From assembly GCA_964421155.1 (NCBI GenBank), contig CAYQVV010000003.1, forward strand, positions 1 through 32,389: a stretch of 32,389 nucleotides of DNA, in the 5' to 3' direction. The stretch's first letter is position 1. Each line of letters starts with the position of its first letter. Both the position numbers and the translations under genes were made by a program. The notes under the pieces were generated by a model that saw only the letters and a program-made list of their open reading frames with translations, had not been told where the DNA came from and made no database searches. Below, piece by piece: positions 4,219 through 31,131 of this stretch. Source of the DNA: an uncultured Elusimicrobiaceae bacterium (lineage in GTDB: Bacteria; RUG730).

Positions 4219-4539
4219 ATGTCAGCACCTCAAGCAATTAGTGAAAATAACATTGAAATTTTTATAGATGGAACAGAAAAAGGATATAAGGGTCAAATAT
4301 TGAATATTAATTCTAGGGCAATGGCTTTTATGTGTGATGAAAAGATTGAAGATAATAATATTTATTTTTTTTCATTTGTTTTGCCTGCGATGGAAAAACT
4401 TAAAAATATAAAAGGTAAAATAGTAAGACAAGAAAAATTTGGAACAAAATTTTTGACTATATTGACTTTTTTTAATATCCCTAAAGTAGAAATGTTGGCA
4501 ATTTATAGATATATTGAAAAAATAAATGAAACTTGTTAA
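4219..4539 (+). CDS. small PilZ-like beta-barrel protein; c-di-GMP-binding motifs look degenerate
   Basis: 106 aa with an AAGGAG RBS. The G-ILNINSRAMAF...G.IVR pattern resembles the PilZ core. There is no RxxxR motif, and the (D/N)xSxxG motif is not intact. Confidence 0.4.
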   Translation: MSAPQAISENNIEIFIDGTEKGYKGQILNINSRAMAFMCDEKIEDNNIYFFSFVLPAMEKLKNIKGKIVRQEKFGTKFLTILTFFNIPKVEMLAIYRYIEKINETC

Positions 4540-7627: not shown

Positions 7628-7635
7628 TTGAAAAT

Positions 7636-8010
7636 ATGTTTGAGTTAAAAGTAAAATCTAAGTTTTCGTCTGCACATTTTTTAAGGGAATACAATGGAAA
7701 ATGTGAAAATTTACATGGACATAATTGGAAAGTAGAAGTAGTTATTTGTGGTAATGATTTAAATAATATTGGATTATTGGTAGATTTTAAAGAACTTAAA
7801 GAAAAACTGAATCATATTTTAAATGAATTAGATCATTATTTATTAAATGAAAAAGAATTTTTTATAAAGTTAAATCCTTCTTGTGAAAATATATCATTTT
7901 ATATTTATAAGAAATTGAATGAATCTTTATCTTTAAATAATAATAGAGTTAAAGTTAAAAGAGTAAATGTTTGGGAAACAGATGATTCTTGTGCTAGCTA
8001 TATAGAATAA
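7636..8010 (+). CDS. queD: 6-carboxy-5,6,7,8-tetrahydropterin synthase (queuosine biosynthesis)
   Basis: It carries the classic QueD/PTPS motifs F.A.H ... C.N.HGHN. The ORF track starts at GTG 7624. ATG 7636 is preferred because GGAG at 7621-7624 then sits 11 nt upstream. Confidence 0.9.
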   Translation: MFELKVKSKFSSAHFLREYNGKCENLHGHNWKVEVVICGNDLNNIGLLVDFKELKEKLNHILNELDHYLLNEKEFFIKLNPSCENISFYIYKKLNESLSLNNNRVKVKRVNVWETDDSCASYIE

Positions 8011-8041
8011 TAAAAATTATTAACAAAATATAGGATTTTTA

Positions 8042-10756: not shown

Positions 10757-10773
10757 ATTTCAATAAATTATCT

Positions 10774-10839
10774 AAATAAATCAAAAATAAATCAAAAAAA
10801 TTAACAAAAAATTAACAAAAAATTTATTTTAAATTGATA
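10774..10839 (+). promoter_or_regulatory. six helically phased 11-bp direct repeats (AAATAAATCAA x2, AAAAATTAACA x2, AAAAATTTATT, TTAAATTGATA); Pho-box-like array
   Basis: Read directly from the sequence. Hexamer cores TTAACA (10801-10806, 10812-10817), TTTATT (10823-10828) and TTGATA (10834-10839) recur every 11 bp. A TATACT -10-like hexamer at 10849-10854 lies 9 bp downstream of the last core. The array is immediately upstream of the porin-pstS unit. Confidence 0.45.
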
Positions 10840-10921
10840 AACTTTTTTTATACTTAGTTTAAATTGGTAATGTTAGAGCTCAATGTTATCAATTTAATTT
10901 AAAATTAAAAGAGGATATTTA

Positions 10922-12097
10922 ATGAGAAAGATATTTTTTATTTTTCAATTTATTATTATTTTTTTGAGTATGGCATTTTTGAATGCAAAAGGATTGGATA
11001 ATGTAGATTTGCTTTTGAACAAATTGATTAGTAAGGGTATTATTACAGAAAATGAAAAGAAAGAAATAATGAGTGATTCAGAAAAGAAAAAAGCTTTTAT
11101 TAAGTTTTATGGAGATTATAGATTAAGATATCAAACAGAAGAAAAAAAAGATAGTAATGGTAAAATTTATTACAGAGATAGAACAAGGATGAGATTTAGA
11201 TTAAAGGGTGATGCAAATGTTTCAGATAATTTAATGATAAAATTTGGGATAGCTACTGGAGGTCAAGATCCAAGATCTACAAACCAAACTTTGGAAAATG
11301 GTTTTGAACCAAAAAATATTTATTTAGATTATGCTTATGCACAATATACATGCCCAATATTTGGAAATGTATATGCAGGAAAATTTGAAAATAAAAATAT
11401 TATTTGGACTCCATCAGATTTGATGTGGGATGGAGATATTAATTTAGAAGGTTTTGGCATTAGTAAAGATCTAAAATTAGGAAACTCTAACATTACATTT
11501 AACAGTGGATATTTATTTTTAGATGAGCTGAATGGAAGAGACAATATTTCTATGTTTGTTTTTCAACCAGTAGTAACTTTGAAAATATCAGAGAATGCAG
11601 ATTTTAAATTGGCGCCATCTATGTATTATTTTAGTAAATTGAAAGGAAATTCTTTGCCTTATTCTGTATTATCTAATACAAATTCAGGAAATTTGAAATA
11701 TGATTATAATTGTTATTCAGTTGGAACAGAAATAAATTTCTATGATATTTTACTTCCAAAAATTGGATTTTTTGCTGAGGGTGTAATAAATCCAGATCCA
11801 GATGATGCAAATAAAGGATTTTTAGGTGGGGTACAAGTTGGATCTAAAAAAATAAAAGAATTTGGAGATTGGGAAATTAAAGCTATGTATAGAGAACTTC
11901 AAAAAGATGCATGGTTAGATATTTTTCCAGATTCAGATACTTTAGGTGGAAAAACAGATAACCAAGGAATGGAAATGATTTTAAATTTAGGATTAACAAA
12001 TAATGTATCTCTAGGTGTGGATTATTATTCTATTGGGAATATAGGTAAAGACAATAAAAAAGATCTAGTTCAAGCAGATATTAATATTAAATTTTAA
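10922..12097 (+). CDS. outer-membrane porin, probably phosphate-selective porin O/P-like
   Basis: 391 aa with an N-terminal signal peptide (FLSMAFLNA/KG). It shows an alternating amphipathic beta-strand pattern with frequent aromatic and Gly residues, and ends in a C-terminal Phe (INIKF) typical of OMP beta-barrels. It sits directly upstream of pstS. Confidence 0.6.
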   Translation: MRKIFFIFQFIIIFLSMAFLNAKGLDNVDLLLNKLISKGIITENEKKEIMSDSEKKKAFIKFYGDYRLRYQTEEKKDSNGKIYYRDRTRMRFRLKGDANVSDNLMIKFGIATGGQDPRSTNQTLENGFEPKNIYLDYAYAQYTCPIFGNVYAGKFENKNIIWTPSDLMWDGDINLEGFGISKDLKLGNSNITFNSGYLFLDELNGRDNISMFVFQPVVTLKISENADFKLAPSMYYFSKLKGNSLPYSVLSNTNSGNLKYDYNCYSVGTEINFYDILLPKIGFFAEGVINPDPDDANKGFLGGVQVGSKKIKEFGDWEIKAMYRELQKDAWLDIFPDSDTLGGKTDNQGMEMILNLGLTNNVSLGVDYYSIGNIGKDNKKDLVQADINIKF

Positions 12098-12117
12098 AAT
12101 AGGAGAAATTTTATAAA

Positions 12118-12930
12118 ATGAGTATAAAAAAAATTGTTTCAAGTTTATTGATTGCATTATGTGGAATCAACTTATTATTAGCTTATGATGAAGTAACAAT
12201 GGTTGGATCAACAACAGTTCTTCCAATAGCTCAAGCTACATCAGAAAAATTTATGGATTTAAATAAAGATACAGATATTTCTGTAAGAGGTGGAGGGTCT
12301 GGAGTAGGAGTATCAGCACTTATAGAAGGAAGATGTGATATTGCTAATTGTTCCAGAGAAATGAAACCTTCTGAAATAGAAAAAGCAAAAAGTAAGGGAG
12401 TTAGCCCAAAAGCTAATATTATTGCAATGGATGGAATTGCTGTTATCATTAACAAAAATAATTCTATTAAAAATTTATCTATAGAACAATTGAGAGGAAT
12501 TTATACAGGACAAATTACAAATTGGAAAAATTTAGGTGGAAAAGATCAAAAAATAGTTGTTATTTCAAGAGATACAGCTAGTGGAACATATGAAGCGTTT
12601 GGACATTTAGTTTTAGGAGATTTAAAAGTAGCACCTTTCGCATTGTTAGAAGCATCAAATAAAGGAGTATTCTCTATAATAGAAAAAACTCCTGGTGCTA
12701 TTGGATATGTGGGTGTTGCTTATGCAAAAGGGAATGTAAAAGTAATAACAGTTAATAATATTAAATGTTCAAAAGAAAATATTTTAAGTTCTAAATATCC
12801 TTTGTCTAGAGCTTTATTTATGTATACAAATGGAGCTCCTAAAGGATCTGTTAAAAAATATATAGATTTTGTTTTAAGTCCAGCAGGACAAAAAATAGTT
12901 GAAGAAGTTGGATATATTGGATTAAAGTAA
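12118..12930 (+). CDS. pstS: phosphate ABC transporter substrate-binding protein
   Basis: 270 aa with a signal peptide. Motifs GSTTV.P, VRGGGSG.G, SR..K..E, ISRD..SGT and IGYVG are typical of PstS/PBP-like 2. Confidence 0.92.
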   Translation: MSIKKIVSSLLIALCGINLLLAYDEVTMVGSTTVLPIAQATSEKFMDLNKDTDISVRGGGSGVGVSALIEGRCDIANCSREMKPSEIEKAKSKGVSPKANIIAMDGIAVIINKNNSIKNLSIEQLRGIYTGQITNWKNLGGKDQKIVVISRDTASGTYEAFGHLVLGDLKVAPFALLEASNKGVFSIIEKTPGAIGYVGVAYAKGNVKVITVNNIKCSKENILSSKYPLSRALFMYTNGAPKGSVKKYIDFVLSPAGQKIVEEVGYIGLK

Positions 12931-12938
12931 ATTTTGAG

Positions 12939-12978
12939 TGACGAGGATTCTATAATCCTCGTCAATTTGTTTGTTTTT
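12939..12978 (+). terminator. rho-independent terminator/attenuator after pstS
   Basis: There is a perfect 11-bp stem, TGACGAGGATT (12939-12949) / AATCCTCGTCA (12954-12964), with a 4-nt loop. It is followed by the T-rich tail ATTTGTTTGTTTTT. Confidence 0.75.
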
Positions 12979-13004
12979 AATTATTTTTTTGATTAGAAAG
13001 AAAC

Positions 13005-13196
13005 AAATTTATTGTTTTGACTAGAAATTAGTTTTTTTAAAAGAGCGACTTACAAAAATATAAGGTGTGAAAGATACATAGAAAGATTTCAGTCATTGCG
13101 AGAGAGCATAGCGAACGAAGCAATCCAGAAAGTTATTTTTATTAAAAAAAGATTTTTTTTAACTGGATTGCTTTGCTAAAGCTCGCAATGACGAGA
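13005..13196. repeat. palindromic (MITE/REP-like) repeat element, copy A
   Basis: It is a direct repeat of 15800-15966, sharing AAATTAGTTTTTTT..GAGCGACTTACA.AAATATAA.GTG...CATTGCGAGAGAGCATAGCGAACGAAGCAATC. The internal inverted repeat is 13092-13128 vs 13163-13192. Two perfect 11-bp helices (GTCATTGCGAG and AAGCAATCCAG) surround an AT-rich loop. The left-end motif AAATTTATTGTTTTGACTA recurs at 16789-16807. Confidence 0.8.
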
Positions 13197-13270
13197 GATG
13201 AGGTAAGTGAAAAATAACGAATAAACTATTCGTTATAAAATTGTAACAATAAAGATTAAAGGAAAATATT

Positions 13271-14164
13271 ATGAAGAAATTTGTTTACATTAAAGAAGAA
13301 ATTTATAAATATTTTTTAATTATATTTAGTTTTACTTCTTTAATTTGTCTTGTTGGAATAATGATTGTGTTGTTTAAAGAAAGTTTTCCTGCATTTAAAC
13401 ATTTTACTTTTAGTAATTTATTTTTAAATAAATTTTGGTATCCTACTTCAGAGCCTCCAGAATTTGGATTGCTTTCTTTGATTATAGGCTCTCTTTCTGT
13501 TACTTTTGTGGCTTTTTTAGTAGCCGTGCCTTTAGGTCTTGGATCAGCATTATATATATATGAAATAGCCCCAAATTGGCAAAAAAAATTTTTAAAATTT
13601 GTAATAGAAATATTAGCAAGTATTCCGTCAGTTGTTTATGGATTATTTGGAATAGTAGTTATGTCACCATTTTTACAAAAAATTTTTTATATGCCTACAG
13701 GGCTTTGTCTATTGACAGCTGGTATAATTTTGGGAATAATGTCTACTCCTACAGTCTGTAGTATTTCAGAAGATGCTTTGGCTAGTGTTCCAAAAAGTTT
13801 AAGAGAAGGATCTTTAGCATTAGGAGCTACTCGTTGGCAAACATTGACTAGAATAATTTTTCCGGCAGCAGGGTCTGGTATTTCTACAGCTATAATTTTA
13901 GGAATTAGTAGAGCAATTGGTGAAACTATGACTGTTTTAATGGTTGCTGGTGGAGCAGCAATGATTCCAACATCATTATTTCAGCCTGTTAGAACTATGA
14001 CTGGGACAATAGCTGCAGAAATGGGAGAGGCAGTTTATAAAAGTGATCATTATTATGTGCTTTTTGTTATCGGATTAGTATTGTTTATATTTACATTTTT
14101 ATTTAATATTACAGCTGAATTGATAAGTAGGAAATATAGATTAAAATTGGGGCAGGGAAGATGA
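13271..14164 (+). CDS. pstC: phosphate ABC transporter permease PstC
   Basis: 297 aa, multi-TM, with the EAA-type loop SLREGSLALGATRWQT and the RAIGETM motif. An AAGGA RBS is present. Confidence 0.93.
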   Translation: MKKFVYIKEEIYKYFLIIFSFTSLICLVGIMIVLFKESFPAFKHFTFSNLFLNKFWYPTSEPPEFGLLSLIIGSLSVTFVAFLVAVPLGLGSALYIYEIAPNWQKKFLKFVIEILASIPSVVYGLFGIVVMSPFLQKIFYMPTGLCLLTAGIILGIMSTPTVCSISEDALASVPKSLREGSLALGATRWQTLTRIIFPAAGSGISTAIILGISRAIGETMTVLMVAGGAAMIPTSLFQPVRTMTGTIAAEMGEAVYKSDHYYVLFVIGLVLFIFTFLFNITAELISRKYRLKLGQGR

Positions 14165-15012
14165 AAATAAAAAATTTAGAAGAAAAATTTTGGTTCGGGT
14201 TGTTAGGAATTCTTATATTTATAACTTTGTTATTTTTAGGTGTAATTATTTATTTTATTTTTAGTAAAGGTTTTTCTGTTTTATCTTGGAGTTTTATTAC
14301 AGAAGTCCCTAGAAGAGCTATGACTCAAGGTGGAGTTGCTCCTGCAATAGTCGGTTCATTTTTTTTGACTTTTGGTTCTATTTTGATTGCTTTGCCTTTG
14401 GGGGTTGCATGTGCTGTATATTTGACAGAATATGCTACAAAAAAATTTTTTTTAGTTGATATAATAAGACTTGGAGTTAATAATCTAGCTGGAGTCCCAT
14501 CAGTTGTTTTTGGATTATTTGGTTTGGCTATTTTTGTAAAATTTTTTGGATTTGGAATTTCAATATTATCTGGAAGTTTGACTTTAGCTATTATGATTTT
14601 GCCTAGCATAATATCTACCTCAACAGAAGCTCTAAATTCTGTTCCTTATTCTTTAAAAGAAGCTTCTTTAGCTTTGGGTGCAACAAAATGGCAAACAATA
14701 AGAAAAATAGTTTTACCTAATGCTATGAACGGTATTTTAACAGGAGTTATTTTAGGAATCGGTAGAGTAGCAGGAGAAACAGCTCCTATACTTTTTACTG
14801 CTGTAACTTTTTATAGAAGAGGATATCCTAATTCTGCATTTTCAGAAGTAATGGCTTTGCCGTATCATATATATGCTTTGATGACAGAAGGCACTTATCC
14901 AGAAGAACAGACTGCAATAGCATATGGTTGTGCATTGATATTATTGATAATGGTTTTGGGAATGTCTTCAATTGCTATTTTTTTAAGAAGTAGGAATAAT
15001 AGGAATTTTTAA
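14161..15012 (+). CDS. pstA: phosphate ABC transporter permease PstA
   Basis: 283 aa. The ATGA start/stop overlaps pstC. It has the [16 protein letters not shown] loop and the GRVAGETAP motif. Confidence 0.93.
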
Positions 15013-15026
15013 TAAAGGAGAATATC

Positions 15027-15788
15027 TTGGATAATAATGTAAGAATTAAAGCAGAAAATGTAAGTTTTTTTTATGGAGAAAAACAGATTTTAAATAATAT
15101 TAGTTTAGATATTTACAATAATAAAGTAACTTCAATAATAGGTCCTTCAGGTTGTGGAAAATCTACATTTTTGAGACTTTTTAATAGGATGAATGATTTA
15201 ACTTTGGATAGTCATTTAGAAGGTAAAATACTTTTGGATAATGAAGATATTAATTCTAAAAATGTAGATGTTGTGGATATTAGACGAAGAGTTGGAATGG
15301 TTTTTCAAAAGCCGAATCCTTTTCCAAAAAGTATTTATGAAAATATAAGTTATGGCTTGAAAATAAATGGAATAAAAGATAAAAATATTATTGATGAAAA
15401 AGTTGTTACATCTTTAAAGCAAGTAGCTCTTTGGAATGAAATTCAAGATAGATTATTTGATAGTGCATTAGCTCTTTCAGGAGGACAACAACAAAGGTTG
15501 TGTATAGCTAGATGTTTGGCTGTTAGTCCAGAAGTTATTTTATTTGATGAACCTTGTGCAAGTTTGGATCCTATTTCAACAAAAAAAATAGAAGAATTAA
15601 TAGAAGAATTAAAAGAAAATTATACTATTGTAATAGTCACTCATAATATGCAACAGGCATCCAGAGTTTCTGATTATACCGCTTTTTTTTATTTAGGACA
15701 TCTGGTAGAGTATAATAAAACTGGAAAAATATTTACAGTGCCTAAAGATAAAAGAACTGAAGATTATATTACTGGGAAATTTGGTTGA
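15027..15788 (+). CDS. pstB: phosphate ABC transporter ATP-binding protein
   Basis: 253 aa. It has Walker [10 protein letters not shown], the signature [13 protein letters not shown], Walker B ILFDEP and the H-loop VTHNM. The start is TTG, with AAGGAG 6 nt upstream. Confidence 0.95.
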
Positions 15789-15799
15789 TATTTTTTTTA

Positions 15800-15966
15800 A
15801 AATTAGTTTTTTTTAATGAGCGACTTACAGAAATATAAAGTGCAAAATAAGAATAAAAAGATTCAGCCATTGCGAGAGAGCATAGCGAACGAAGCAATCT
15901 AGATAGTTTTTTTTATTAAAAAAGATTTTTTTATATAGATTGCTTCACTAAAGTTCGCAATGATGA
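15800..15966. repeat. palindromic (MITE/REP-like) repeat element, copy B
   Basis: It is a direct repeat of 13025-13196. The internal inverted repeat is CATTGCGAGAGAGCATAGCGAACGAAGCAATCTAG (15868-15902) vs TAGATTGCTTCACTAAAGTTCGCAATG (15936-15962). It starts right after the pstB stop codon. Confidence 0.8.
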
Positions 15967-15978
15967 TGATCTAAAAAT

Positions 15979-16040
15979 AAAATTTAATGTCATTGACAAA
16001 AACGAATTATTTGAAAAATTTTAATAGATTGCCGTAGACA
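15979..16040 (+). repeat. repeat module R1, copy a (AAATTTAAT..CATTGACA...TTGAAAA.TTTTA.A.ATTGCCGTAGACA)
   Basis: It is a near-identical direct repeat of 16555-16616, read by eye. It contains a TTGACA hexamer and an A/T-rich TAATAG/TATAAA box just before GCCGTAGACA. Confidence 0.7.
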
Positions 16041-16115
16041 AAGATATCAAAGGAAAACCCACTCAAATACCGTTGGTTTTCCTTTGTAACCTTTCCGCTG
16101 GCTTTGTGTCGGCAA
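16029..16115 (+). other. predicted nested stem-loop in the ORF-free region
   Basis: The outer helices are TTGCCG (16029-16034) / CGGCAA (16110-16115) and CAAAG (16039-16043) / CTTTG (16102-16106). They enclose a perfect 8-bp hairpin, GGAAAACC (16052-16059) / GGTTTTCC (16075-16082). Confidence 0.3.
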
Positions 16116-16554
16116 AAACTCGCACCTTAGTTAGATTTTAGTATAAAAAACCTCTTAACCATATAAAGTTAGGCGATATTATTGAAAGTTTAGTGAGGCT
16201 CACACATTAGCCGACAGACAAGGAAATAAAAAATAAATTTATATTTAAGTTTTTTTTGTCCGCCTTATAGCGGAAAAGCTGAGTAAAAATATTAAAAATC
16301 GTTTAAAAATTTCTAGGTTGTTGTTTTTTATTTTATGTTGTATTGAAATTTTAGATTTTTAATGTTTTTAATCCTATATCCGATATACAGCGGACTAGCT
16401 AATTTGCGACGACGGGGATTGACCGTCCTGTCGTCAAACCAAAAAAGGCAATGTCAAAAAAGAAAATTAAAACGGTAATTTATTGAAAGCTTTTTGAAAA
16501 CTTTAAAAGTATTAAATATTTATTTAAAAAAAAATGGCAAGTATTTTGTATAAA

Positions 16555-16616
16555 AAAATTTAATAGCCATTGACAATGAAATGATGTTTTGAAAATTTTA
16601 TAAATTGCCGTAGACA
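16555..16616 (+). repeat. repeat module R1, copy b
   Basis: Direct repeat of 15979-16040 (see that entry). Confidence 0.7.
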
Positions 16617-16971
16617 GAAAATCGTCATGTTAAAATCTAGATTCTTCGCTTCGCTATGAATGACGAGAAAAAAATTTGTGAAATTTAAACATTTAGCCGA
16701 CAAACAAGAATAAACAATAAAACACCCCGATTGTCGCAATGTTTAGTAAAATTGCAGACTACCCCTCTAAAAGAGGGGAATTTAAATAAAATTTATTGTT
16801 TTGACTAAAGAAAGTTTATAAAAAAGAAGTTAAAAAAAATAAAATTTAATTTTTAATTTTTTTTCGTCGGAAAAAGTTTGAAAATTCTCCATGTGGAGAA
16901 AAATTGTTTGTTTTGTAATAGTCCAATATTTAGAAAAAAAATTATTTAAATTGTAAAAAAAAGGAGAATTT

Positions 16972-17637
16972 ATGTTTCAACAAAAATTGTATGATTTAAG
17001 AATTAAAATAACGGAATATGCAGCCTTTATTCAAAATATGTTTTTAGGAAGTGTTAGAAGTATTTCAACTTTAGACAGAAATATGTTAGAAAACATAATA
17101 CAAAACGATGAAAAAAAAGCAAATAAATATGAATTAGATATTGAAAAATTGTGTACATATTTTATAGCTCAATATGATCCAAAAGCTATAGATTTGCGAA
17201 CATTACTTATGACATTAAAGATAAATAATGACTTGGAAAGAATAGGAGATCATTCTGTAAATATTTCAGAAAGTGGATTGTTTTTAATAGATAGCCAAAA
17301 AATTTCAATAAAAGAAATAAATAGTTTAAATGAAACGATAAATGTTGTTTCTGAAATGTTGAGTTTAGCAATAAAAGCATTTATAGATAAAGATATAAAA
17401 TTGGCTGCTAATATTAGAGAAAAAGATAATATTGTAGATGATTTGCATAGACAAACTTTTAAAGATATGATAGTTCTCATGAAAAAAAATACAGATTTGA
17501 TAGAAGATGCTTTGCATATTATTAGAATTTCTAATAATTTAGAAAGAATAGCAGATTTGACTACTAATATTTGTGAAGATATTGTTTATATTTTTGAGGC
17601 AACTATTTTAAAGCATAAAAGTTTGAAAGATACTTAA
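16972..17637 (+). CDS. phoU: phosphate signalling complex protein PhoU
   Basis: 221 aa. It has the two-fold PhoU repeat with DLERIGDH and NLERIADL motifs. An AAGGAG RBS is present. Confidence 0.93.
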   Translation: MFQQKLYDLRIKITEYAAFIQNMFLGSVRSISTLDRNMLENIIQNDEKKANKYELDIEKLCTYFIAQYDPKAIDLRTLLMTLKINNDLERIGDHSVNISESGLFLIDSQKISIKEINSLNETINVVSEMLSLAIKAFIDKDIKLAANIREKDNIVDDLHRQTFKDMIVLMKKNTDLIEDALHIIRISNNLERIADLTTNICEDIVYIFEATILKHKSLKDT

Positions 17638-17674
17638 CCATTATAATTAAATTTTTAATTAATTTTAATATCTT

Positions 17675-17707
17675 AAAAGGAACGGTTTTTTAGCCGTTCC
17701 TTTTTTT
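17675..17707 (+). terminator. rho-independent terminator after phoU
   Basis: The stem is GGAACGG (17679-17685) / CCGTTCC (17694-17700), extended by flanking A/T pairs and followed by a T7 tract (17701-17707). Confidence 0.75.
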
Positions 17708-17762
17708 ATTTTTAAATAAAAAAATATTTAAATTTTTTCAATGAATATAGTATAATATAAAA
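17681..17762 (+). repeat. 82-bp direct repeat, left copy (identical to 23404-23485)
   Basis: A character-by-character comparison by eye found the 82-bp core identical. It includes the 3' half of the phoU terminator and a TATAAT box. Weaker homology extends outward: 17649-17665 = 23374-23390, and ATTACATT lies downstream of both copies. Confidence 0.9.
17728..17756 (+). promoter_or_regulatory. possible sigma70-type promoter inside the left repeat (TTAAAT-17-TATAAT)
   Basis: There is a perfect TATAAT at 17751-17756 and a weak -35 (TTAAAT) 17 nt upstream, 121 nt before the helicase ATG. Such hexamers arise easily in AT-rich DNA. Confidence 0.3.
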
Positions 17763-17876
17763 TTATATACTATTACATTATTTGAAGTTTTATTTTAATA
17801 AAATTTTTATTTTTTTTATGATGTGGGGGAAGTAAAGTATAAATATTAATTGTATTATATTTTGTGGAGTTATATT

Positions 17877-20800
17877 ATGTTCAATATTGATTTAAAGTTA
17901 GATAATTGGAAAAAAAGACTGTTAGATTTAGGAAAAAGAAATCGTTTAATTAACTATCGAGAAACAAAAAGATCTAATTTGAATATTACTGTTCCTAATT
18001 ATGTTGATCTTTTCGAAAAAATTGTAGTGGACGAGCAAGTTTTGATTTTTCCATATCCTGTTGATAAAAGATTTGATGAAGAGGATTTAATTAAATCTAA
18101 AACGGAGATTATTAAGGGGGATTTGGAAACTGATAGAACAATCAAGGAACAACAAAAAACACTTAAATCTTTAAGAGAAAAAGCAAAAACAGCAATTGAG
18201 GAACAAGGGGTCAATATTCTTTATCTTTCATTTGGGTTTTTAAAATGGTATGAAAATACTGATTCATCTCAAATGATTGTATCTCCTATTGTTTTGGTCC
18301 CTGTTACTCTTACAATAGAATCCATTTCTGATCCATATAAAATGTCTTTACACGAAGATGAAATTGTAATTAATCCAACACTTTCACATAAACTTAATAA
18401 CGATAGGGGTTTAAATTTACCAGAATTTGATGCTCAAAAAGATAGCATTGAAAACTATTTGATGGAAATATCAAAGCTTGTGAAAAAAGAGGGATTCACT
18501 ATTGATACTAATGTTAGTTTATCTTTGCTCTCATTTTTAAAAATTAATATGTATTATGATCTCGATAAACATACTGAAAAAATTAAAAATCACAATATTA
18601 TAAAAGCATTATGTAGAGATAATAGTTCAATAGAGCATGTTTCTGAAACAATGAATAATTATGATCATGATAATAACCAAAGACCTGTTGATATCTATCA
18701 AGTAGTTGATGCGGATTCAAGTCAACAGGATGCTGTAGTTCTTTCAAAAAAAGGTATCAGCTTTGTTTTGCAAGGCCCTCCGGGAACAGGGAAAAGTCAA
18801 ACAATTACTAATATTATTTCTGAAGCATTAGCGGATGATAAAAAAGTTTTATTTGTATCGGAAAAGAAGGCAGCACTCGAGGTAGTACATAAAAGATTGA
18901 CTTTAGCTAAACTTTCTGATTTTTGTTTAATCCTACACAATCATAAGGCAATTAAAAGAGAAATTTTAAAAAGTTTAGAGGATACAATAAATCTTGATAA
19001 AGTATCTGTAAAAGAAAATGCCATTTATCAATTAGAAGTTTTAAACAATGAACGAAAAAAGTTAAATGAATATAGCTGTCAGTTACATACAAAAATTATG
19101 CCATTAAATAAAACAATTTATGAAGTAAATGGTATATTGGCAAAGCTTACATATGCACCTGATGTAATATTTTTATTGGAGAATGTTGAGCAAACTACCC
19201 CTGAACAACTAAGAAAATACTTGTATTTAATATCTGAGTTGACTAAGACTATTGGGAAAATGACTAGTGATTACAATTCGAATCCATGGAAAGGTAGTAA
19301 TGTTAAATATATTTCTCACGAACTTCGTCATAATATTGAGACATATTTAAAAAAAATAAAACTACAATTGCCTCAAATGACAGACAAAATACAAAGTGAT
19401 TTAAACTCACTTTGTATTGAAAATAATTTACTGGTTGGAGAATTTGAGGATTTTATAGTGTTTTTAAAATTTTGTGCAACATCGCCAAAAGTTCCGAAAG
19501 AATGGTTGTCAAATAATGATATACAAGTTCTTTCTGATAAAGCTAAAGAGTTAAATATTAATAGAAAAGAATATTTGACTCTTTTGAAAGAATTGAGTGA
19601 GTTATATAAATCTGATGTTTTTGATATTAATGCGAAACAAATTAGTTTTCAATTGTCAAATGCTTTTACGGATATGTTTAAACTATTAAGTAGTAATTAT
19701 AATAATGAAAAAATTATTTTTGATAACGCAGATCGTTTAATATCTTTGTGCCAAAAAACAAATAAAAATTTTGAGAATCTTTTAGTAGCATCTGGAACAA
19801 TAGCTAAAAGTTTACAATTAAAAGAACCTGTAAATATTACGGAAATTCAAAAAATTTATGAATTTGCAGAAATTTTTAATCAAAAAATTCATCCAAAAGA
19901 ATCTTGGTTTTCTCAAGACACAAAAAAGACACTTCTTGATTTTCTTGAACAGGCAAAAGAAAATCAAAATTTACTAAATACATTAAAATCAGAAATATTT
20001 GAAAAATATGAAAAAGAAATTTTGAATATTTCTTTTTATGACATGCTCAAAAGATTCAAAACCGACTATATTTCATTGTTTAAAATTTTTAATAAAGCAT
20101 ACAGAAAAGATAAAAAAGAAATAAAATCACTTTGCATTATTCCTGTCAAAAAAATTTCGGACAAAGACATTATCGAGCTACTTTGTAAAATTAAAATTTT
20201 TAAAGAAAAACAGCAATGGTTTAAAGATAATGAAGGTTTTTTTATAGAAAATTTTGGAACTTTATATGTTGGAGAACAAACAAATTATCTTGAAATTGAA
20301 AAGAGATTTCTTTTGCTAGATAGTGTTACGAATTATTTTAATGGCATAATTCCTGAAAACATAAAACATATGCTTTTAAATCATAATAATTATCAAAGTT
20401 TTGGTCAAGAAGTTCAAGCAATAAATGAAATTATAAAGTTAGAAAATTTGATGCTACAAAATGAATATCAATCTATTTTATCAGAGACACAGAATTTTAA
20501 AGATTGCTCCCTCGAGTTAATTATAGAAAAAAATATTCGTATAATTAAGTTATTGTCTGATTGTAAAAAAGCAATACAGCCTTTGTTTTCATTTGCGAAA
20601 GATAACAAAAATTATGATTTTCATAGTGAAAGTCTTTCAAAACTTATTAGATTGCAAGAAATTAAATCTGATATAGAATTAAATGCTTCTGCTTTTAAAG
20701 AAGAATTAAAGTTTTTTTATAATGGAATAGATACAGATTGGGAAAAGGTATTATCTTCACTTTTATGGACGAATAAATTAAAAGAATATATAGAACACTA

Positions 20801-23387
20801 TCATTTGACAAAAGATTTCCAATATAAAATAATATCAGAAGATTTGGCAATAAAAAAAACATATGAGTTAGCTTTGTATATACAATCTTTTGGAAACAAT
20901 ATTTTTAAGGATATTTATTGGTTTGATTCTTTATTTGATGAAGAATATAGTATAAAAAAAATCAATTTATATGCTTTACAAGATAGAGTTCAAACCTGTT
21001 TGGATAGTTTGACAGGATTAGAAGAATGGATAGATTTTAAAACTGCTAAAGAAAATTGTGAAGAGGAAGGGTTATCAGAATTTATAAATGTAATCATTGA
21101 ACAAAATATTGATAAATTTATGATTGAAAATGCTTTTAAAAAGTATTTTTATAGATTGTGGCTCGATAAAGTTTTACCAAATTATCCTGCTGTCTATTCA
21201 TTTAGAAGTCGTGACCAAGAAGAAAAGATAAAACAATTTTCTAACATTGATAAGGAACAAATGCAAATTGCAAGTTTGAGGATAAGGGAAAAACTTATTA
21301 ACAAGTTGCCTGATTTTGGTAGTATAACATCGGCATATGGAGAAGTTGGTATATTAAAACGAGAACTTGGAAAGCAAAAAAAAATAATGCCTATTAGAAA
21401 ACTTTTTGAGAAAATTCCTACTTTATTACCTTGTCTGAAACCATGTCTTATGATGTCTCCTTTATCAGTAAGTTTATTTTTACAATCAGATATTTATAAT
21501 TTTGATATGGTTATTTTTGATGAAGCTTCACAGGTATGTACAGAAAATGCTATTGGTGCAATCATGAGAGCTAAACAAGTTATTATTGCAGGAGACAGTA
21601 AACAGTTGCCACCTACAAATTTTTTTAATGCTTCGATATCTGATGGAGATTATGATACTGAAGATGATGAAATCGAAGATTCTTGTTCTTTTGAATCTGT
21701 ACTTGATGAGGCGGTAACAGTATTACCTGAACGGTCTTTAAAATGGCATTATAGAAGTAAACATGAAGATTTAATCGCATTTTCTAATGCTAAAATATAT
21801 AACAATTCGCTAATAACCTTTCCTTCTCATATAGATAAAGGAGCTGATAATGGTGTTGAATATATTTTTGTTGAAGATGGGGTTTATGATCGTCAAGGTA
21901 AGAAAAACAATATCACTGAGGCAAAAAAAGTTGCAAAAATGATATTTGAACATATTACAATTTACCCAACTCGTTCTCTTGGAGTTATTACATTTAGCGA
22001 ATCTCAGAAACATGCTGTTGATGTTGCGGTAGAGGAACTCAGGAAGCAAAATCCGCAATATGAAGAATTTTTTAGGGAGGATAAAAAAGAAGAATTTTTT
22101 GTAAAAAATATTGAAACGGTGCAAGGTGACGAAAGAGATACAATAATTTTTAGTATTGGTTATGCAAAAGATGCCAATGGTGTTATGTCTTTGAATTTAG
22201 GACCGCTTAATAAACAGGGTGGAGAAAGACGGCTTAATGTTGCAATAACTAGAGCAAAATACAATATGAAATTAGTAGGTTCAATTCAGCCAACAGACAT
22301 CAAGACTGAAGATAGTAATTCTGAGGGACTTAAACTGCTGAGATCGTATATTGAGTTTGCAATTACTGGAAAGAGTGTATTGGTAAATGAAATTACATGT
22401 GATAAAAATATACATTTCGACTCTCCTTTTGAAGAATCTGTATATGATTTTTTAAAAATGAAGGGATATAGATTAAAGACACAAGTTGGATGCTCTGGTT
22501 ATAAAATTGATCTTGCAGTCTATCATCCTATACTTGATGGTAGATTTGTGCTTGGTGTTGAGTGTGATGGTGCGACATATCATTCTTCTCGTACAGCTAG
22601 AGAACGCGATCGTCTAAGACAAGATGTGCTTGAAGATATTGGTTGGCGAATATATCGTATTTGGTCTACTGATTGGATAAAAGACCATATTACTGAAGGA
22701 AAAAAGCTATTGGATGTAATAGAAAAAGCTATAGCAGAATATCAAGAAGAAAATTTTTGTATGAGTTCTTATAAATCGAAACAATGTATCGAAGAATTTT
22801 CTATTGATAATTATTTAATAAGAGAAAATAAAGACATTGAACAGACGAATAATAATTTTTGTTTTGATTATTATAAAGAGGTGGATATATTTGAAATTAA
22901 AAGAAGTTCTGATTATTTTATTTATATTTGTGATGTATTTTATCATATAGTTAAAAATGAATATCCTATACATTTTGAATTATTGTGTAAAAGAATAGCT
23001 CCATTGTTTGGAAATCAAAAATCAACAATAAAAATTAGAAGAGAAATCGATTATGTTTTACAACGAATGAGTAAGAAAGTATATTTTAAAAATAATTATT
23101 TATACCTTGTAAATGGGGGAGAAATTATTCCTCGTATACCAAAACAAGGAGAACTTCCTAGACCGATTAATTATATTTGTTCTGAAGAACTAGCAAAAGC
23201 AATGTTAGTTATTATTTCAAAAAGTTATGGATTAACGAAAGAAAGTCTATATCAAATAACTTCTCGTGAGTTTGGGTTTAATCGCATAGGGAATAATATT
23301 GTTGTAATCTTAGATGAAGCTTTTGATTTGAATTTGAAATTGTCAAAAATACAAATTATTGAAAATAAACTTAAAATTTTTAATTAA
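17877..23387 (+). CDS. giant DUF4011 / Upf1-like SF1 helicase (AAA_11 + AAA_12) / Vsr-DUF559-type endonuclease / DUF3320 fusion protein
   Basis: The start is set at ATG 17877, with GGAG at 17866-17869 and 7-nt spacing. The N-terminus W.KRLLDLGKRNRLINYR and LYLSFGFLKW...SPIVLVPV are DUF4011 hallmarks. Walker A is LQGPPGTGKSQT (nt ~18774). Motif II is VIFDEASQ (nt ~21510), followed by IIAGDSKQLPPT. The 2A-domain motifs are WHYRS, TVQGDERD and RRLNVAITRAK. Next comes YKIDLAV...LGVECDGATYHSSRTARERDRLRQDVLEDIGWRIYRIWSTDW, which is the DUF559/MTES_1575 PD-(D/E)xK fold. A C-terminal DUF3320-like tail completes the protein. Confidence 0.85.
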   Translation: MFNIDLKLDNWKKRLLDLGKRNRLINYRETKRSNLNITVPNYVDLFEKIVVDEQVLIFPYPVDKRFDEEDLIKSKTEIIKGDLETDRTIKEQQKTLKSLREKAKTAIEEQGVNILYLSFGFLKWYENTDSSQMIVSPIVLVPVTLTIESISDPYKMSLHEDEIVINPTLSHKLNNDRGLNLPEFDAQKDSIENYLMEISKLVKKEGFTIDTNVSLSLLSFLKINMYYDLDKHTEKIKNHNIIKALCRDNSSIEHVSETMNNYDHDNNQRPVDIYQVVDADSSQQDAVVLSKKGISFVLQGPPGTGKSQTITNIISEALADDKKVLFVSEKKAALEVVHKRLTLAKLSDFCLILHNHKAIKREILKSLEDTINLDKVSVKENAIYQLEVLNNERKKLNEYSCQLHTKIMPLNKTIYEVNGILAKLTYAPDVIFLLENVEQTTPEQLRKYLYLISELTKTIGKMTSDYNSNPWKGSNVKYISHELRHNIETYLKKIKLQLPQMTDKIQSDLNSLCIENNLLVGEFEDFIVFLKFCATSPKVPKEWLSNNDIQVLSDKAKELNINRKEYLTLLKELSELYKSDVFDINAKQISFQLSNAFTDMFKLLSSNYNNEKIIFDNADRLISLCQKTNKNFENLLVASGTIAKSLQLKEPVNITEIQKIYEFAEIFNQKIHPKESWFSQDTKKTLLDFLEQAKENQNLLNTLKSEIFEKYEKEILNISFYDMLKRFKTDYISLFKIFNKAYRKDKKEIKSLCIIPVKKISDKDIIELLCKIKIFKEKQQWFKDNEGFFIENFGTLYVGEQTNYLEIEKRFLLLDSVTNYFNGIIPENIKHMLLNHNNYQSFGQEVQAINEIIKLENLMLQNEYQSILSETQNFKDCSLELIIEKNIRIIKLLSDCKKAIQPLFSFAKDNKNYDFHSESLSKLIRLQEIKSDIELNASAFKEELKFFYNGIDTDWEKVLSSLLWTNKLKEYIEHYHLTKDFQYKIISEDLAIKKTYELALYIQSFGNNIFKDIYWFDSLFDEEYSIKKINLYALQDRVQTCLDSLTGLEEWIDFKTAKENCEEEGLSEFINVIIEQNIDKFMIENAFKKYFYRLWLDKVLPNYPAVYSFRSRDQEEKIKQFSNIDKEQMQIASLRIREKLINKLPDFGSITSAYGEVGILKRELGKQKKIMPIRKLFEKIPTLLPCLKPCLMMSPLSVSLFLQSDIYNFDMVIFDEASQVCTENAIGAIMRAKQVIIAGDSKQLPPTNFFNASISDGDYDTEDDEIEDSCSFESVLDEAVTVLPERSLKWHYRSKHEDLIAFSNAKIYNNSLITFPSHIDKGADNGVEYIFVEDGVYDRQGKKNNITEAKKVAKMIFEHITIYPTRSLGVITFSESQKHAVDVAVEELRKQNPQYEEFFREDKKEEFFVKNIETVQGDERDTIIFSIGYAKDANGVMSLNLGPLNKQGGERRLNVAITRAKYNMKLVGSIQPTDIKTEDSNSEGLKLLRSYIEFAITGKSVLVNEITCDKNIHFDSPFEESVYDFLKMKGYRLKTQVGCSGYKIDLAVYHPILDGRFVLGVECDGATYHSSRTARERDRLRQDVLEDIGWRIYRIWSTDWIKDHITEGKKLLDVIEKAIAEYQEENFCMSSYKSKQCIEEFSIDNYLIRENKDIEQTNNNFCFDYYKEVDIFEIKRSSDYFIYICDVFYHIVKNEYPIHFELLCKRIAPLFGNQKSTIKIRREIDYVLQRMSKKVYFKNNYLYLVNGGEIIPRIPKQGELPRPINYICSEELAKAMLVIISKSYGLTKESLYQITSREFGFNRIGNNIVVILDEAFDLNLKLSKIQIIENKLKIFN

Positions 23388-23400
23388 TTTAAATTTTTTT

Positions 23401-23430
23401 AGCAACGGTTTTTTAGCCGTTCCTTTTTTT
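23401..23430 (+). terminator. weakened copy of the phoU-type terminator after the helicase gene
   Basis: The 3' arm and T7 tract are the same as at 17694-17707, but the 5' arm reads GCAACGG instead of GGAACGG, giving one mismatch in the stem. Confidence 0.4.
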
Positions 23431-23485
23431 ATTTTTAAATAAAAAAATATTTAAATTTTTTCAATGAATATAGTATAATATAAAA
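23404..23485 (+). repeat. 82-bp direct repeat, right copy (identical to 17681-17762)
   Basis: See the left copy. The offset between the copies is 5723 bp. Confidence 0.9.
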
Positions 23486-23618: not shown

Positions 23619-24668
23619 ATGGAAAAACAATTGATTACAAAAAATAATCAGCTATTTGTTCGGGTAGCAGAGATTATAGACATTGCTCGTAAAAAAGTTG
23701 TTAGTAGTGTAAATTTGACTATGGTTCATACTTATTTTGAGATAGGCAGAATGATTATTGAAGATGAGCAACAAGGTAAAGAAAGAGCAGAGTATGGAAA
23801 ATTTGTATTAAAAGATTTATCAAAACAGCTTACAGAAAAATTTGGCAAAGGTTTTTCACCGGATAATTTAGAAAATATGCGAAAATTTTATCTTGCTTAT
23901 TCAATTTCCGAGACAGTGTCTAGGAAATTTATTTTAAGCTGGTCTCATTATCTTGTTTTAATGAAAATAGAAAATCCACAAGAACGAAGTTTCTATGAAA
24001 TAGAATCTGCTGAAAATGATTGGAGTTTGAGGGAATTGAAAAGACAGTATAATTCAAGTCTTTATGAAAGATTAGCCTTAAGCCGAGATAAAGACGAAGT
24101 AATGAAACTAGCAACTGCTGGAAATATAATCGTAAATCCCTCAGATATTCTGAAAAATCCATTAACATTAGAATTTTTAGGACTAGAGGAAAAAGCGAAA
24201 TATTCTGAAACAGATTTGGAAGATGGGATAATCTCAAAATTACAACATTTTTTGTTAGAACTAGGAAAAGGTTTTTTATTTGAAGCTAGGCAAAAACGAT
24301 TTACTTTTGACGATAAAAATTTTTTTGTTGATTTAGTTTTTTACAATCGGCTTTTACAATGTTATGTTTTAATAGATTTAAAAATAGATGAATTGTCACA
24401 TCAAGATTTAGGACAAATGCAAATGTATGTAAATTATTACGATAGATTTATAAAAAAAGATTTTGAGAACCCAACGATTGGTATTTTATTATGCAAGAAA
24501 AAACAGACAGCACTTGTCGAATTAACTTTGCCAAAAGATGCAAATATTTATGCCTCAGAATACAGCTTATATTTACCAGACAAAAAATTATTACAACAAA
24601 AATTAAATGAATGGCTGATTGAATTTGAAAATAATGAGCTGGATTCTAAATCTAGGAGGAAGAAATAA
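23619..24668 (+). CDS. YhcG-like PD-(D/E)xK nuclease (DUF1016 family)
   Basis: 349 aa. The N-terminal V...N..MV..YF.IGR.I...Q.G..RAEYGK..L..LS..L...FGKGFS..NL..MR.FY is the DUF1016 signature. The C-terminal FVDLVFYN....CYVLIDLK supplies the D...(D/E)xK nuclease core. Confidence 0.85.
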   Translation: MEKQLITKNNQLFVRVAEIIDIARKKVVSSVNLTMVHTYFEIGRMIIEDEQQGKERAEYGKFVLKDLSKQLTEKFGKGFSPDNLENMRKFYLAYSISETVSRKFILSWSHYLVLMKIENPQERSFYEIESAENDWSLRELKRQYNSSLYERLALSRDKDEVMKLATAGNIIVNPSDILKNPLTLEFLGLEEKAKYSETDLEDGIISKLQHFLLELGKGFLFEARQKRFTFDDKNFFVDLVFYNRLLQCYVLIDLKIDELSHQDLGQMQMYVNYYDRFIKKDFENPTIGILLCKKKQTALVELTLPKDANIYASEYSLYLPDKKLLQQKLNEWLIEFENNELDSKSRRKK

Positions 24669-29238: not shown

Positions 29239-31131
29239 ATGGAATTAAAAGATAGTATAGAGAATTATTCTATTTTGAAAAATATAAATGATTTTAAAGA
29301 TATAAAAAAATTATCTTTTGAGGAATTAGAAAAATTATCTTTTGAGATAAGAGATTATATTATAAAAATTGTATCTGAAAATGGTGGACATTTGGCTAGT
29401 AGTTTGGGAGTTGTAGATTTAACCATTGCATTATTTTATATATTTGATATAGAAAAAGATAAGGTTGTTTGGGATGTCGGGCATCAATCATATGCTTATA
29501 AAATTTTGACTGATAGAAAAAATGAATTTTCAACACTCAGAAAATTTAATGGAATAAGTGGATTTCCTAAGATTAGTGAAAGTAAATATGATGTTTTTGG
29601 AACTGGGCATAGTTCTACATCTATATCTGCTGCTTTGGGTTTAGCAGTTTCTAGAGATCTTAAAAATAGAAATGAGAAAGTTATAGCAGTTATTGGCGAT
29701 GGATCAATGACAAATGGACTTGCTTTTGAGGGTTTGAATAACGCAGGAAATTTAAATAAAGATATGCTAGTCATACTTAATGATAATGAAATGTTTATTT
29801 CTGACAGAGTTGGAGCAATAGGTAAATATTTAACAAAAATTTTATCTGGAGAATTTGTTCAAAATTTAGATTCAATTGTTTCAAGAATTACAAAAAATTT
29901 AAAAATTCCACAAATAATTATAAAAAAATTGATAAGCAGAGCAAAGACTATTTTAACTCCAGGTATGCTTTTTGAAGAGTTAGGCTTTACATATTTAGGT
30001 CCAGTTGATGGAAATAATATTTCAACATTAATAGAAATTTTAAGTAAGATAAAAGATTTAAAAGGTCCAGTTTTGCTTCATATAATAACTAAAAAAGGTA
30101 AAGGCTATAATTTTGCAGAAATAAATCCTACGAAATTTCATGGAATAAGTAGTTTTGATGAAGATACAGGAGAAGCACATAAAATTGTAGGAAAAAAAAA
30201 GACATATACTCAAGTTTTTGGAGAGACTTTAGTTAAAGAAGCAGAAAAAAATAAATCAATAGTTGCAATCACTGCAGCGATGTGTGAAGGAACAGGATTA
30301 GTTGATTTCGCCAATAAATTTCCTGATAGATATTTTGATGTGGGAATAGCAGAATCTCATGCATTAACTTTTGCTGCAGGTTTGTCAGTAAATGGAATTA
30401 TTCCTATCTGTGCTATATATTCAACTTTTTTACAAAGAGCTTTTGATCAAGTTTTGCATGATATATGTTTACAGAATCTTCCAGTTATTATAGCTATAGA
30501 TAGATCTGGAATAGTTGGAGAAGACGGTCCTACTCACCATGGAGTTTTTGACATTTCTTTTTTAAGAATAATTCCCAATTTAATATTTATGTCTCCTAAA
30601 GATGAAAATGAACTTTCTTTAATGTTAAGAACAGCTATAGAATTAAAAAAGCCTTGTGCAATTAGATATCCTAGAGGTGAAGGATTTGGAATAGAAATAG
30701 ATTATAACACTCCAATTTTAGAAATAGGAGATCAAGAAGTAATTTTTGATAAAGGCAATATTTGTGTATTTGCTACAGGAAATATGTTAATTAGAACAAA
30801 AAATGCTATAGAAAAATTATCCAAAGAAAATATGTTTTTTAAATTAGTAAATATTAGATTTTTAAAACCTATTAACGAAAATTTTATAAAAGAGTTTGTG
30901 AAAAATTCAGATATAATAATTACTTTAGAAGAAAATATATTATCTGGAGGAATGGGGTCAAATATTAAAGAAATTTTATCTGATGAAGGAAATAAAAAAA
31001 TTTTGTCCTTAGGCTTACCGGATAAGTTTATTGAACATGGTGGACAAGAAAAATTGAGAGATATATATAATCTTTCAGAAGAAAAAATTTATTTAATTTT
31101 AAAAGAAATATATCAAAGCAATGAAAAATAA
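29239..31131 (+). CDS. dxs: 1-deoxy-D-xylulose-5-phosphate synthase
   Basis: 630 aa. It has GGHLASSLGVVDLT, the ThDP motif GDGSMTNGLAFEGLNNAG, DVGIAE.HA and DGPTHHG. Confidence 0.95.
   Translation: MELKDSIENYSILKNINDFKDIKKLSFEELEKLSFEIRDYIIKIVSENGGHLASSLGVVDLTIALFYIFDIEKDKVVWDVGHQSYAYKILTDRKNEFSTLRKFNGISGFPKISESKYDVFGTGHSSTSISAALGLAVSRDLKNRNEKVIAVIGDGSMTNGLAFEGLNNAGNLNKDMLVILNDNEMFISDRVGAIGKYLTKILSGEFVQNLDSIVSRITKNLKIPQIIIKKLISRAKTILTPGMLFEELGFTYLGPVDGNNISTLIEILSKIKDLKGPVLLHIITKKGKGYNFAEINPTKFHGISSFDEDTGEAHKIVGKKKTYTQVFGETLVKEAEKNKSIVAITAAMCEGTGLVDFANKFPDRYFDVGIAESHALTFAAGLSVNGIIPICAIYSTFLQRAFDQVLHDICLQNLPVIIAIDRSGIVGEDGPTHHGVFDISFLRIIPNLIFMSPKDENELSLMLRTAIELKKPCAIRYPRGEGFGIEIDYNTPILEIGDQEVIFDKGNICVFATGNMLIRTKNAIEKLSKENMFFKLVNIRFLKPINENFIKEFVKNSDIIITLEENILSGGMGSNIKEILSDEGNKKILSLGLPDKFIEHGGQEKLRDIYNLSEEKIYLILKEIYQSNEK

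Follow-up and report, generated by a model that had tools for sequence, protein, structure and literature searches.

The stretch of DNA analysed here (the window) comprises 32,389 nucleotides of contig CAYQVV010000003.1 from an uncultured Elusimicrobiaceae bacterium. Downstream of a pst-phoU operon it carries a gene for a giant helicase-nuclease, which, judged by profile homology, is an added member of an already named family of single-protein anti-phage helicase-nucleases, and its architecture is not new. The program-made open reading frame (ORF) call at this place is 17850-23387 on the forward strand with a TTG start, and an ATG at 17877, with a GGAG (17866-17869) seven bases 5' of it, gives a protein of 1836 amino acids. 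The gene is real and intact, and its parts are as follows.

17877..23387, forward strand: helicase-nuclease ORF of 1836 amino acids, a DUF4011 / Upf1-like helicase / Vsr-fold nuclease / winged-helix fusion
17763..17876, forward strand: unique 5' leader of the helicase gene, with the GGAG before the ATG
17916..18395, forward strand: DUF4011 module, residues 14-173, from Pfam and an AlphaFold2 (AF2) model, mixed alpha/beta
18717..18911, forward strand: first half of helicase RecA1, residues ~281-345, with Walker A GPPGTGKS (K306)
18957..21356, forward strand: RecA1 insert of ~800 amino acids, residues ~361-1160, rich in L, K, I and E and without a Pfam family
21459..22286, forward strand: remaining helicase core, residues ~1195-1470, with DEASQ, GDSKQLPP, QGDERD and RLNVAITRA
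22428..22718, forward strand: Vsr-fold endonuclease domain (MTES_1575 / DUF559-like), residues 1518-1614
22869..23384, forward strand: C-terminal tail, residues ~1665-1836, modelled as tandem winged-helix-like domains and overlapping DUF3320 (cf. PMC3710099)

The initial annotation, made from the letters of the window, had described a four-part polypeptide of ~1836 amino acids, and the Pfam search that it proposed recovers DUF4011, AAA_11, AAA_12, MTES_1575 and, weakly and over the same stretch as MTES_1575, DUF559. The DUF4011 module (residues 14-173, E 2.5e-41) and the MTES_1575 nuclease (residues 1518-1614, E 4e-36) score 141.7 and 123.4 bits, well above their Pfam cut-offs of 22.2 and 38.2. 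AAA_19 and AAA_30 cover the end of the helicase core that holds Walker A (~281-343), AAA_11 matches twice, best over residues 1204-1247, and AAA_12 spans residues 1284-1469. As to the fourth part, a DUF3320 tail, the AF2 model of the tail is winged-helix-like and a precomputed PF11784 match is present in most homologues, but the protein's own DUF3320 (PF11784) match at residues 1686-1721 reaches 20.1 bits, below the gathering cut-off of 25.

The helicase motifs quoted in that annotation are intact and lie at residues 300 (GPPGTGKS), 1215 (DEASQ), 1239 (GDSKQLPP), 1416 (QGDERD) and 1452 (RLNVAITRA). In an alignment of the query with 120 homologues at 43-59% identity, the key residues of all quoted helicase and nuclease motifs are invariant in 121 of the 121 sequences, and both enzymatic modules are therefore subject to purifying selection and predicted to be active. 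All the motifs that define the Upf1-like helicases of superfamily 1B (SF1B) are preserved, Walker A and DExx as well as those of the two RecA domains. The solved relatives found by sequence in the PDB are IGHMBP2, Sen1, Upf1 and Dna2 (4b3f, 5mzn, 2xzo, 5eaw), each matching the helicase core only, and they fit an Upf1-like SF1B motor. The match to the IGHMBP2 equivalog TIGR00376 is 85 bits versus a cut-off of 349, and thus the protein is not an IGHMBP2 orthologue.

The helicase core is split: Walker A lies at residue 306 but motif II only at 1215, which leaves RecA1 with an insert of roughly 800-850 residues. This insert is the least conserved part of the protein, its mean top-residue frequency being 0.22-0.46 (residues 480-1040) versus 0.8-0.9 in the motor. 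Homologues vary from ~1,670 to ~2,430 amino acids, the size of the insert shifting through duplication of modules of ~145 amino acids (e.g. P0035 and P0049); homologues of 2,100-2,400 amino acids contain two to four extra modules of this kind in the RecA1 insert, each a duplicate of a neighbouring segment. Across the family the insert looks like a modular, fast-evolving region within an otherwise highly conserved enzyme. A HEPN domain, as in the MTES_1575-type giant proteins, was sought and not found, there being no Pfam match and no conserved Rx4-6H outside the helicase motifs.

The nuclease carries IDLAV at residue 1544, ECDGATYH at 1562 and RDRLRQ..GW..R.W at 1577-1596. D1545, E1562, D1564 and H1569 are invariant across the aligned sequences and are presumed to correspond to the Vsr catalytic residues. 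In an AF2 model of the C-terminal region (residues 1490-1836, mean predicted local distance difference test score, pLDDT, of 78.2), the nuclease part (~1520-1620) is matched by Foldseek to the homing endonuclease I-Bth0305I (3r3p; probability 1.00, template modelling score, TM, of 0.78-0.82 on the target), to the DUF559 protein NGO0050 (3hrl) and Vsr (1cw0), both at probability 1.00, and to the RAP domains of mitoribosomal and FASTKD proteins at probability 0.96-1.00. The Vsr/DUF559 type given in the initial annotation is thus upheld by the MTES_1575 score, by the Vsr-like fold and by the invariant acidic and histidine residues. For the modelled tail the matches are weaker (E > 0.03, probability ~0.8-0.85) and fall on proteins with winged helices in tandem, e.g. 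SelB and Stn1, in agreement with the 'Vsr REase plus two wHTH, overlapping DUF3320' (restriction endonuclease and winged helix-turn-helix domains) of an earlier study (Anantharaman et al. 2013, PMC3710099). The model of the N-terminal region (residues 1-290, mean pLDDT 78.6) has a mixed alpha/beta fold. Foldseek found nothing significant for its DUF4011 region in the PDB (best E 0.055, TM <=0.14) and the sole match in BFVD is an uncharacterised phage 'AAA domain protein'; DUF4011 is therefore a fold without assigned function. Sequence searches of the PDB with the N-terminal and C-terminal pieces gave nothing significant.

Among named anti-phage proteins, the strongest match overall is to PADLOC PDC-S37 (PDLC05009), with E = 0 and 1440.7 bits in three stretches, the best of which aligns residues 896-1831 with model positions 622-1543 of 1550. 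The PADLOC profile for Hhe (PDLC02194) gives 630.1 bits, and those for MkoA (95.5 bits) and MkoC (66.2 bits) match the helicase core only. No curated cut-off is given for the PADLOC profiles; NCBIfam sets 1500 bits for ProA and 2000 bits for Hhe. The best NCBIfam match, 'anti-phage protein ProA' (NF058533, 1315.7 bits), and the match to 'DUF4011 domain-containing anti-phage protein Hhe' (NF042953, 916 bits) both fall under these values. Four close relatives from Bacillota and another from Bacteroidota score in the same range (ProA 1343.6-1398.6 bits, Hhe 902-960 bits). The scores therefore place the protein in an Hhe/ProA/PDC-S37 superfamily, on a branch of ~1,840 amino acids that lies just outside both NCBI equivalogs and is probably the one that PADLOC calls PDC-S37.

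Homology to the PDC-S37, Hhe and ProA models over most of the length sustains both the domain reading and the defence reading of the initial annotation, and the PADLOC check suggested there, made as a profile search, points in the same direction. Its statement that no function had been experimentally defined for this architecture was wrong, since Hhe is a published single-gene defence system that has been used in experiments (PMC13223576; bioRxiv 10.1101/2024.10.10.617714). A literature search found no paper mentioning PDC-S37 and no experiment on the ~1,840-aa branch, and the papers reached contain no biochemical mechanism for the Hhe/ProA/PDC-S37 family. The family has no solved structure, and nothing characterised is related to the DUF4011 fold or to the ~800-aa insert.

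More than 7,700 proteins in a set of 5.8 billion match the helicase protein at E <= 1e-10. The top matches with a named source are almost all from Bacillota, with one from Bacteroidota, at up to 59% identity, and the closest named homologue is labelled 'RAP domain-containing' by UniRef. The DUF4011 module alone matches 4,535 clusters (50% identity) at E <= 1e-10, mostly proteins of 1,800-2,400 amino acids. Homologues occur on 578 plasmid records from bacteria and haloarchaea, 11 of them near full length, and are rare among phage records. The surroundings of seven homologues were compared.

P0002 locus: 3' of smpB, next to a VbhA/Fic pair
P0011 locus: insertion sequence (IS), integrase fragment, AEP-TOTE SNF2 gene and DUF3987 gene
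P0097 locus: immediately 3' of hsdR-hsdM-hsdS, a type I restriction-modification (R-M) operon
P0035 locus: topoisomerase and IS21/Mu-type transposase genes alongside
P0041 locus: McrBC-like genes, Abi_2, Schlafen/AlbA gene and transposases
P0082 locus: Mrr, type I R-M system, AAA_15 ATPase and DUF3800
P0105 locus: L034 (ENA ERZ27297473), 7326-19652, flanked by uvrB and mfd, with no defence genes

Most of the seven loci are in defence or mobile contexts (R-M, McrBC, Abi, IS), an anecdotal sample and not a statistical enrichment, and they have no synteny in common. A syntenic core gene would not be expected to show such a spread, which points instead to an accessory gene associated with defence islands; an accessory role is what the initial annotation had supposed.

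The best match of the DXS protein encoded in the window is 70% identical and most others are 55-58% identical, and the named matches are nearly all from Elusimicrobiota/Endomicrobia, which makes the host a member of Elusimicrobiota with a low GC content (~25%). A PhoU pattern scan of GTDB species representatives found no relative above 45% identity. The helicase protein is 59% identical to Bacillota proteins and colinear with them, with 12 gapped positions over the whole alignment. Given an Elusimicrobiota host and such colinear homologues in Bacillota, transfer between phyla is the best explanation, and the gene was likely acquired in this way.

The gene is bracketed by a direct repeat, and a second nuclease gene follows.

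17649..17762, forward strand: left direct-repeat copy of ~114 nt, with the phoU-side intrinsic-terminator hairpin at 17675-17704 and a promoter-like TTTAAA-18-TATAAT at 17727-17756
23374..23485, forward strand: right direct-repeat copy, with a terminator at 23404-23421 and a promoter-like site at 23450-23479, upstream of yhcG
23619..24668, forward strand: YhcG/DUF1016 nuclease, with DUF1016_N and a YhcG PDDEXK domain (Pfam); PADLOC candidate PDC-S02, 466.7 bits

The exact part of the repeat is 82 nt long (17681-17762 = 23404-23485), where zero such repeats are expected by chance, and it reaches ~114 nt around a short diverged patch. The pair brackets the helicase gene alone. As both copies hold the same terminator-promoter module, the helicase gene and yhcG each have this module upstream. 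The right copy begins within the last helicase codons, and yet the C-terminus is full length compared with homologues. Upstream lie pstS-pstC-pstA-pstB-phoU (phoU at 16972-17637), and downstream of yhcG come murI and lpxK on the opposite strand, followed by trxB, an Fe-hydrogenase gene and dxs (29239-31131). The repeat-bounded cassette next to a second nuclease and between housekeeping genes, as first annotated, is thus present. The helicase gene and yhcG form a small two-gene candidate defence island beside phoU. YhcG was also considered as an obligate partner and rejected; it is missing from all seven homologue loci and is therefore a neighbour, not a partner.

A Pfam scan of 21 ORFs gave no integrase or transposase, and the window contains no tRNA/tmRNA attachment site and no Rfam element. 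The 46-nt core of the repeat has zero exact matches in metagenome contigs. The same locus occurs in JGI metagenomes 3300076594, 3300076591, 3300076265 and 3300076261 and in SRR12447101 and SRR12447103, and the contigs with identical PhoU or YhcG end inside the repeat or carry the 3' end of the helicase gene upstream of yhcG. In one of them (L026, from 3300076265) the right copy hardly differs from the left and has the left-type patch. The repeat copies vary between strains, by the look of these sequences through gene conversion or recent recombination. Another contig (L005, from 3300076591) is 5725 nt long, exactly one repeat period (window 17666-23390). It was rejected as evidence for a circular form, because the near identity of the two copies in other strains, as in L026, explains it more simply as a collapse by the assembler.

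Elsewhere in the window, the 1.2-kb gap between pstB and phoU (15789-16971) has no ORF of at least 60 amino acids and no Rfam or tRNA match, and consists of short GC-rich islets amid very AT-rich DNA. It contains two two-copy motifs, 'CATTGACAA...AAATTGCCGTAGACA' near 15995 and 16568 and 'TTAGCCGACA[GA]ACAAG' at 16207 and 16693. The gap could be a decayed gene, a set of regulatory repeats or a small unannotated RNA. A gene for 6-pyruvoyl-tetrahydropterin synthase is flanked by two ORFs of extremely low GC content (15-17%), at 4526-7627 (1033 amino acids) and 8042-10756 (904 amino acids). The former has no Pfam, PADLOC or NCBIfam match and the latter only a GGDEF domain at residues 619-769.

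The architecture, the integrity of the motifs, the homology to anti-phage models, the contexts of the homologues and the flanking repeat are directly established. With a probability of roughly 0.7, they suggest that the protein is a stand-alone ATP-driven helicase-nuclease for defence against phages or other invading DNA. The mechanism that we infer, from the domains and from the genetics of Hhe, extends to the substrate, the polarity, the trigger or activation, a protective phenotype and the outcome, whether degradation of phage DNA or abortive infection. The Upf1-like SF1 motor would load on single-stranded or branched nucleic acid and track along it, and such structures would arise during replication or recombination of phage DNA, or when the phage seizes the DNA metabolism of the host. 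The two C-terminal winged-helix domains may help to grip the nucleic acid, while the Vsr-fold, Mg-dependent endonuclease, placed directly after RecA2, would nick or cut the tracked DNA and so keep the phage from replicating, perhaps with some harm to the host. DUF4011 and the ~800-aa variable, module-duplicating RecA1 insert may be the sensing or auto-inhibitory part. The gene would have been acquired horizontally, as its Bacillota-type relatives suggest, and now sits as a self-contained terminator-promoter-gene cassette between phoU and the second candidate defence nuclease.

Several observations weigh against defence by a horizontally acquired helicase-nuclease. The function is extrapolated across subfamilies, as the query and five members of its clade score below both equivalog cut-offs. 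PDC-S37 is only a computational 'candidate' of PADLOC, and the literature search found no publication behind the name ProA. The codon usage is almost fully host-like, with the GC content at third codon positions (GC3) being 0.168 for the helicase gene versus 0.09-0.16 for its neighbours; yhcG, at 0.200, and the helicase gene have the highest GC3 in the window by a small gap. The compositional signal of recent transfer is weak, and the composition is nearly ameliorated. None of the metagenomic contigs with identical PhoU or YhcG shows an empty site (phoU-repeat-yhcG). P0105 lies between the nucleotide-excision-repair genes uvrB and mfd with no nearby defence genes, the only such context among the seven, and in Pseudomonas aeruginosa a large DUF4011 gene is core and present in every isolate (PMC10250203).

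The last two points, together with the location of the present gene amid housekeeping genes, would favour an alternative in which the protein is a genome-maintenance enzyme, for example a mismatch- or lesion-directed Vsr-type nicking enzyme that works with a 5'-3' motor in the service of the host chromosome. Vsr itself is a repair endonuclease and shares the nuclease fold, and the helicase core is like those of Dna2 and IGHMBP2. Such a role is nevertheless unlikely, since the seven homologue loci are non-syntenic and mostly in R-M, Abi or IS contexts, plasmid-borne homologues exist, the nearest relatives are in a different phylum, the direct repeat brackets the gene in an insertion-like manner and the best-scoring named families are anti-phage.

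Action on RNA is less probable still. In this alternative an Upf1-like RNA helicase and a RAP-like (Vsr-fold) domain would degrade phage or aberrant transcripts, as the Upf1/Sen1/IGHMBP2-like core, the RAP matches of the nuclease model and the UniRef label of the closest named homologue would allow. The nuclease, however, keeps invariant the full set of acidic residues and histidine of the DNA-cutting Vsr/DUF559 enzymes, its best domain-level structure matches are the DNA endonucleases 3r3p, 3hrl and 1cw0, there is no conserved HEPN Rx4-6H motif, and the published candidate triggers of Hhe include T7 DNA-metabolism genes (bioRxiv 10.1101/2024.10.10.617714). A mainly selfish cassette, in which the nuclease acts in a homing-like way to aid the spread or persistence of the gene and defence is a side effect, is very improbable: it would suit the top fold match to I-Bth0305I, the single-gene unit within ~114-nt direct repeats, with no integrase among the 21 ORFs scanned, and the crossing between phyla, but no known homing-endonuclease gene resembles a helicase fusion of 5.5 kb, the gene is in neither an intron nor an intein context, the repeat is an ordinary terminator and promoter with no recognisable target site, and relatives are named and used as anti-phage systems.

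Defence against phages or other invading DNA therefore remains the preferred role. A speculative extension of it, which we consider unlikely, is that the ~1,840-aa clade is a third branch that answers to a trigger or acts on a substrate of its own, and that the terminator-promoter repeat marks an integrase-free means of moving single defence genes. In such a scheme a circular form of the gene and repeat would recombine with a matching intergenic region, and a ready-to-express cassette would be dropped between housekeeping genes, here across phyla into Elusimicrobiota.

For annotation, the gene can be labelled as an Hhe/ProA-like (PDC-S37) defence helicase-nuclease and not as a new system. The range of the family now includes Elusimicrobiota, a phylum with few cultured members and little-known phage defence, and the two single-gene nuclease candidates make a small island beside the pst-phoU operon. 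What is mildly new is the Elusimicrobiota host, the branch outside the NCBI equivalog models and the terminator-promoter direct repeat that brackets one defence gene. The compact and well-conserved protein is a possible target for structural or biochemical work, for which any member of the family could serve equally.

The closest published system is Hhe. The hhe gene is among the systems of Gao et al. 2020 (Science 369:1077) according to the listing in a 2025 review (PMC13223576), and it encodes helicase and nuclease domains in one gene; its candidate triggers are T7 DNA-metabolism genes and g40 of Bas63, the latter being toxic only in the presence of hhe, and phage NAD+-synthesis genes and gp130 are reported as counters (bioRxiv 10.1101/2024.10.10.617714). 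Like Hhe (HheA), the present protein is a single giant polypeptide with an N-terminal DUF4011, an Upf1-like SF1 helicase and a Vsr-type endonuclease, and it is colinear with the NF042953 model over residues 91-1643 (model 126-1710 of 1797). Its 916 bits against a cut-off of 2000 indicate a different subfamily, and the NF042953 alignment ends before its C-terminal winged-helix/DUF3320 tail. What has been reported of phage spectrum, triggers and counter-defences applies to E. coli Hhe. The ProA alignment (NF058533) reaches the last model position, residues 835-1803 corresponding to 915-1903 of 1903, and thus includes nuclease and tail, but the score of 1315.7 bits is less than 1500 and the poor alignment of the variable insert breaks the match into three stretches. 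The likeness to PDC-S37 is a significant profile match over most of the length.

More distant systems share parts of this plan. The MTES_1575-type giants have an SF1 helicase, a 'novel Vsr REase' that founded the Pfam family MTES_1575, and two winged-helix domains overlapping DUF3320 (PMC3710099), and the present protein has the same three elements; unlike it, they carry HEPN and transglutaminase domains, neither of which was found by Pfam here. The initial annotation had also named Mokosh and the Nhi-type nuclease-helicases. In a helicase phylogeny, Hhe, MkoA and MkoC are Upf1-like and Nhi is a UvrD-like SF1 helicase (PMC10925250), and no Nhi model is among the PADLOC matches, so the Nhi-type grouping is imprecise. 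The likeness to Mokosh does not extend beyond the Upf1-like helicase core common to MkoA and MkoC (66-96 bits versus 1440.7 for PDC-S37). In place of the PLD domain, which Pfam did not detect, and of a partner gene, which is absent, the present protein has DUF4011, a Vsr-fold nuclease and a winged-helix tail.

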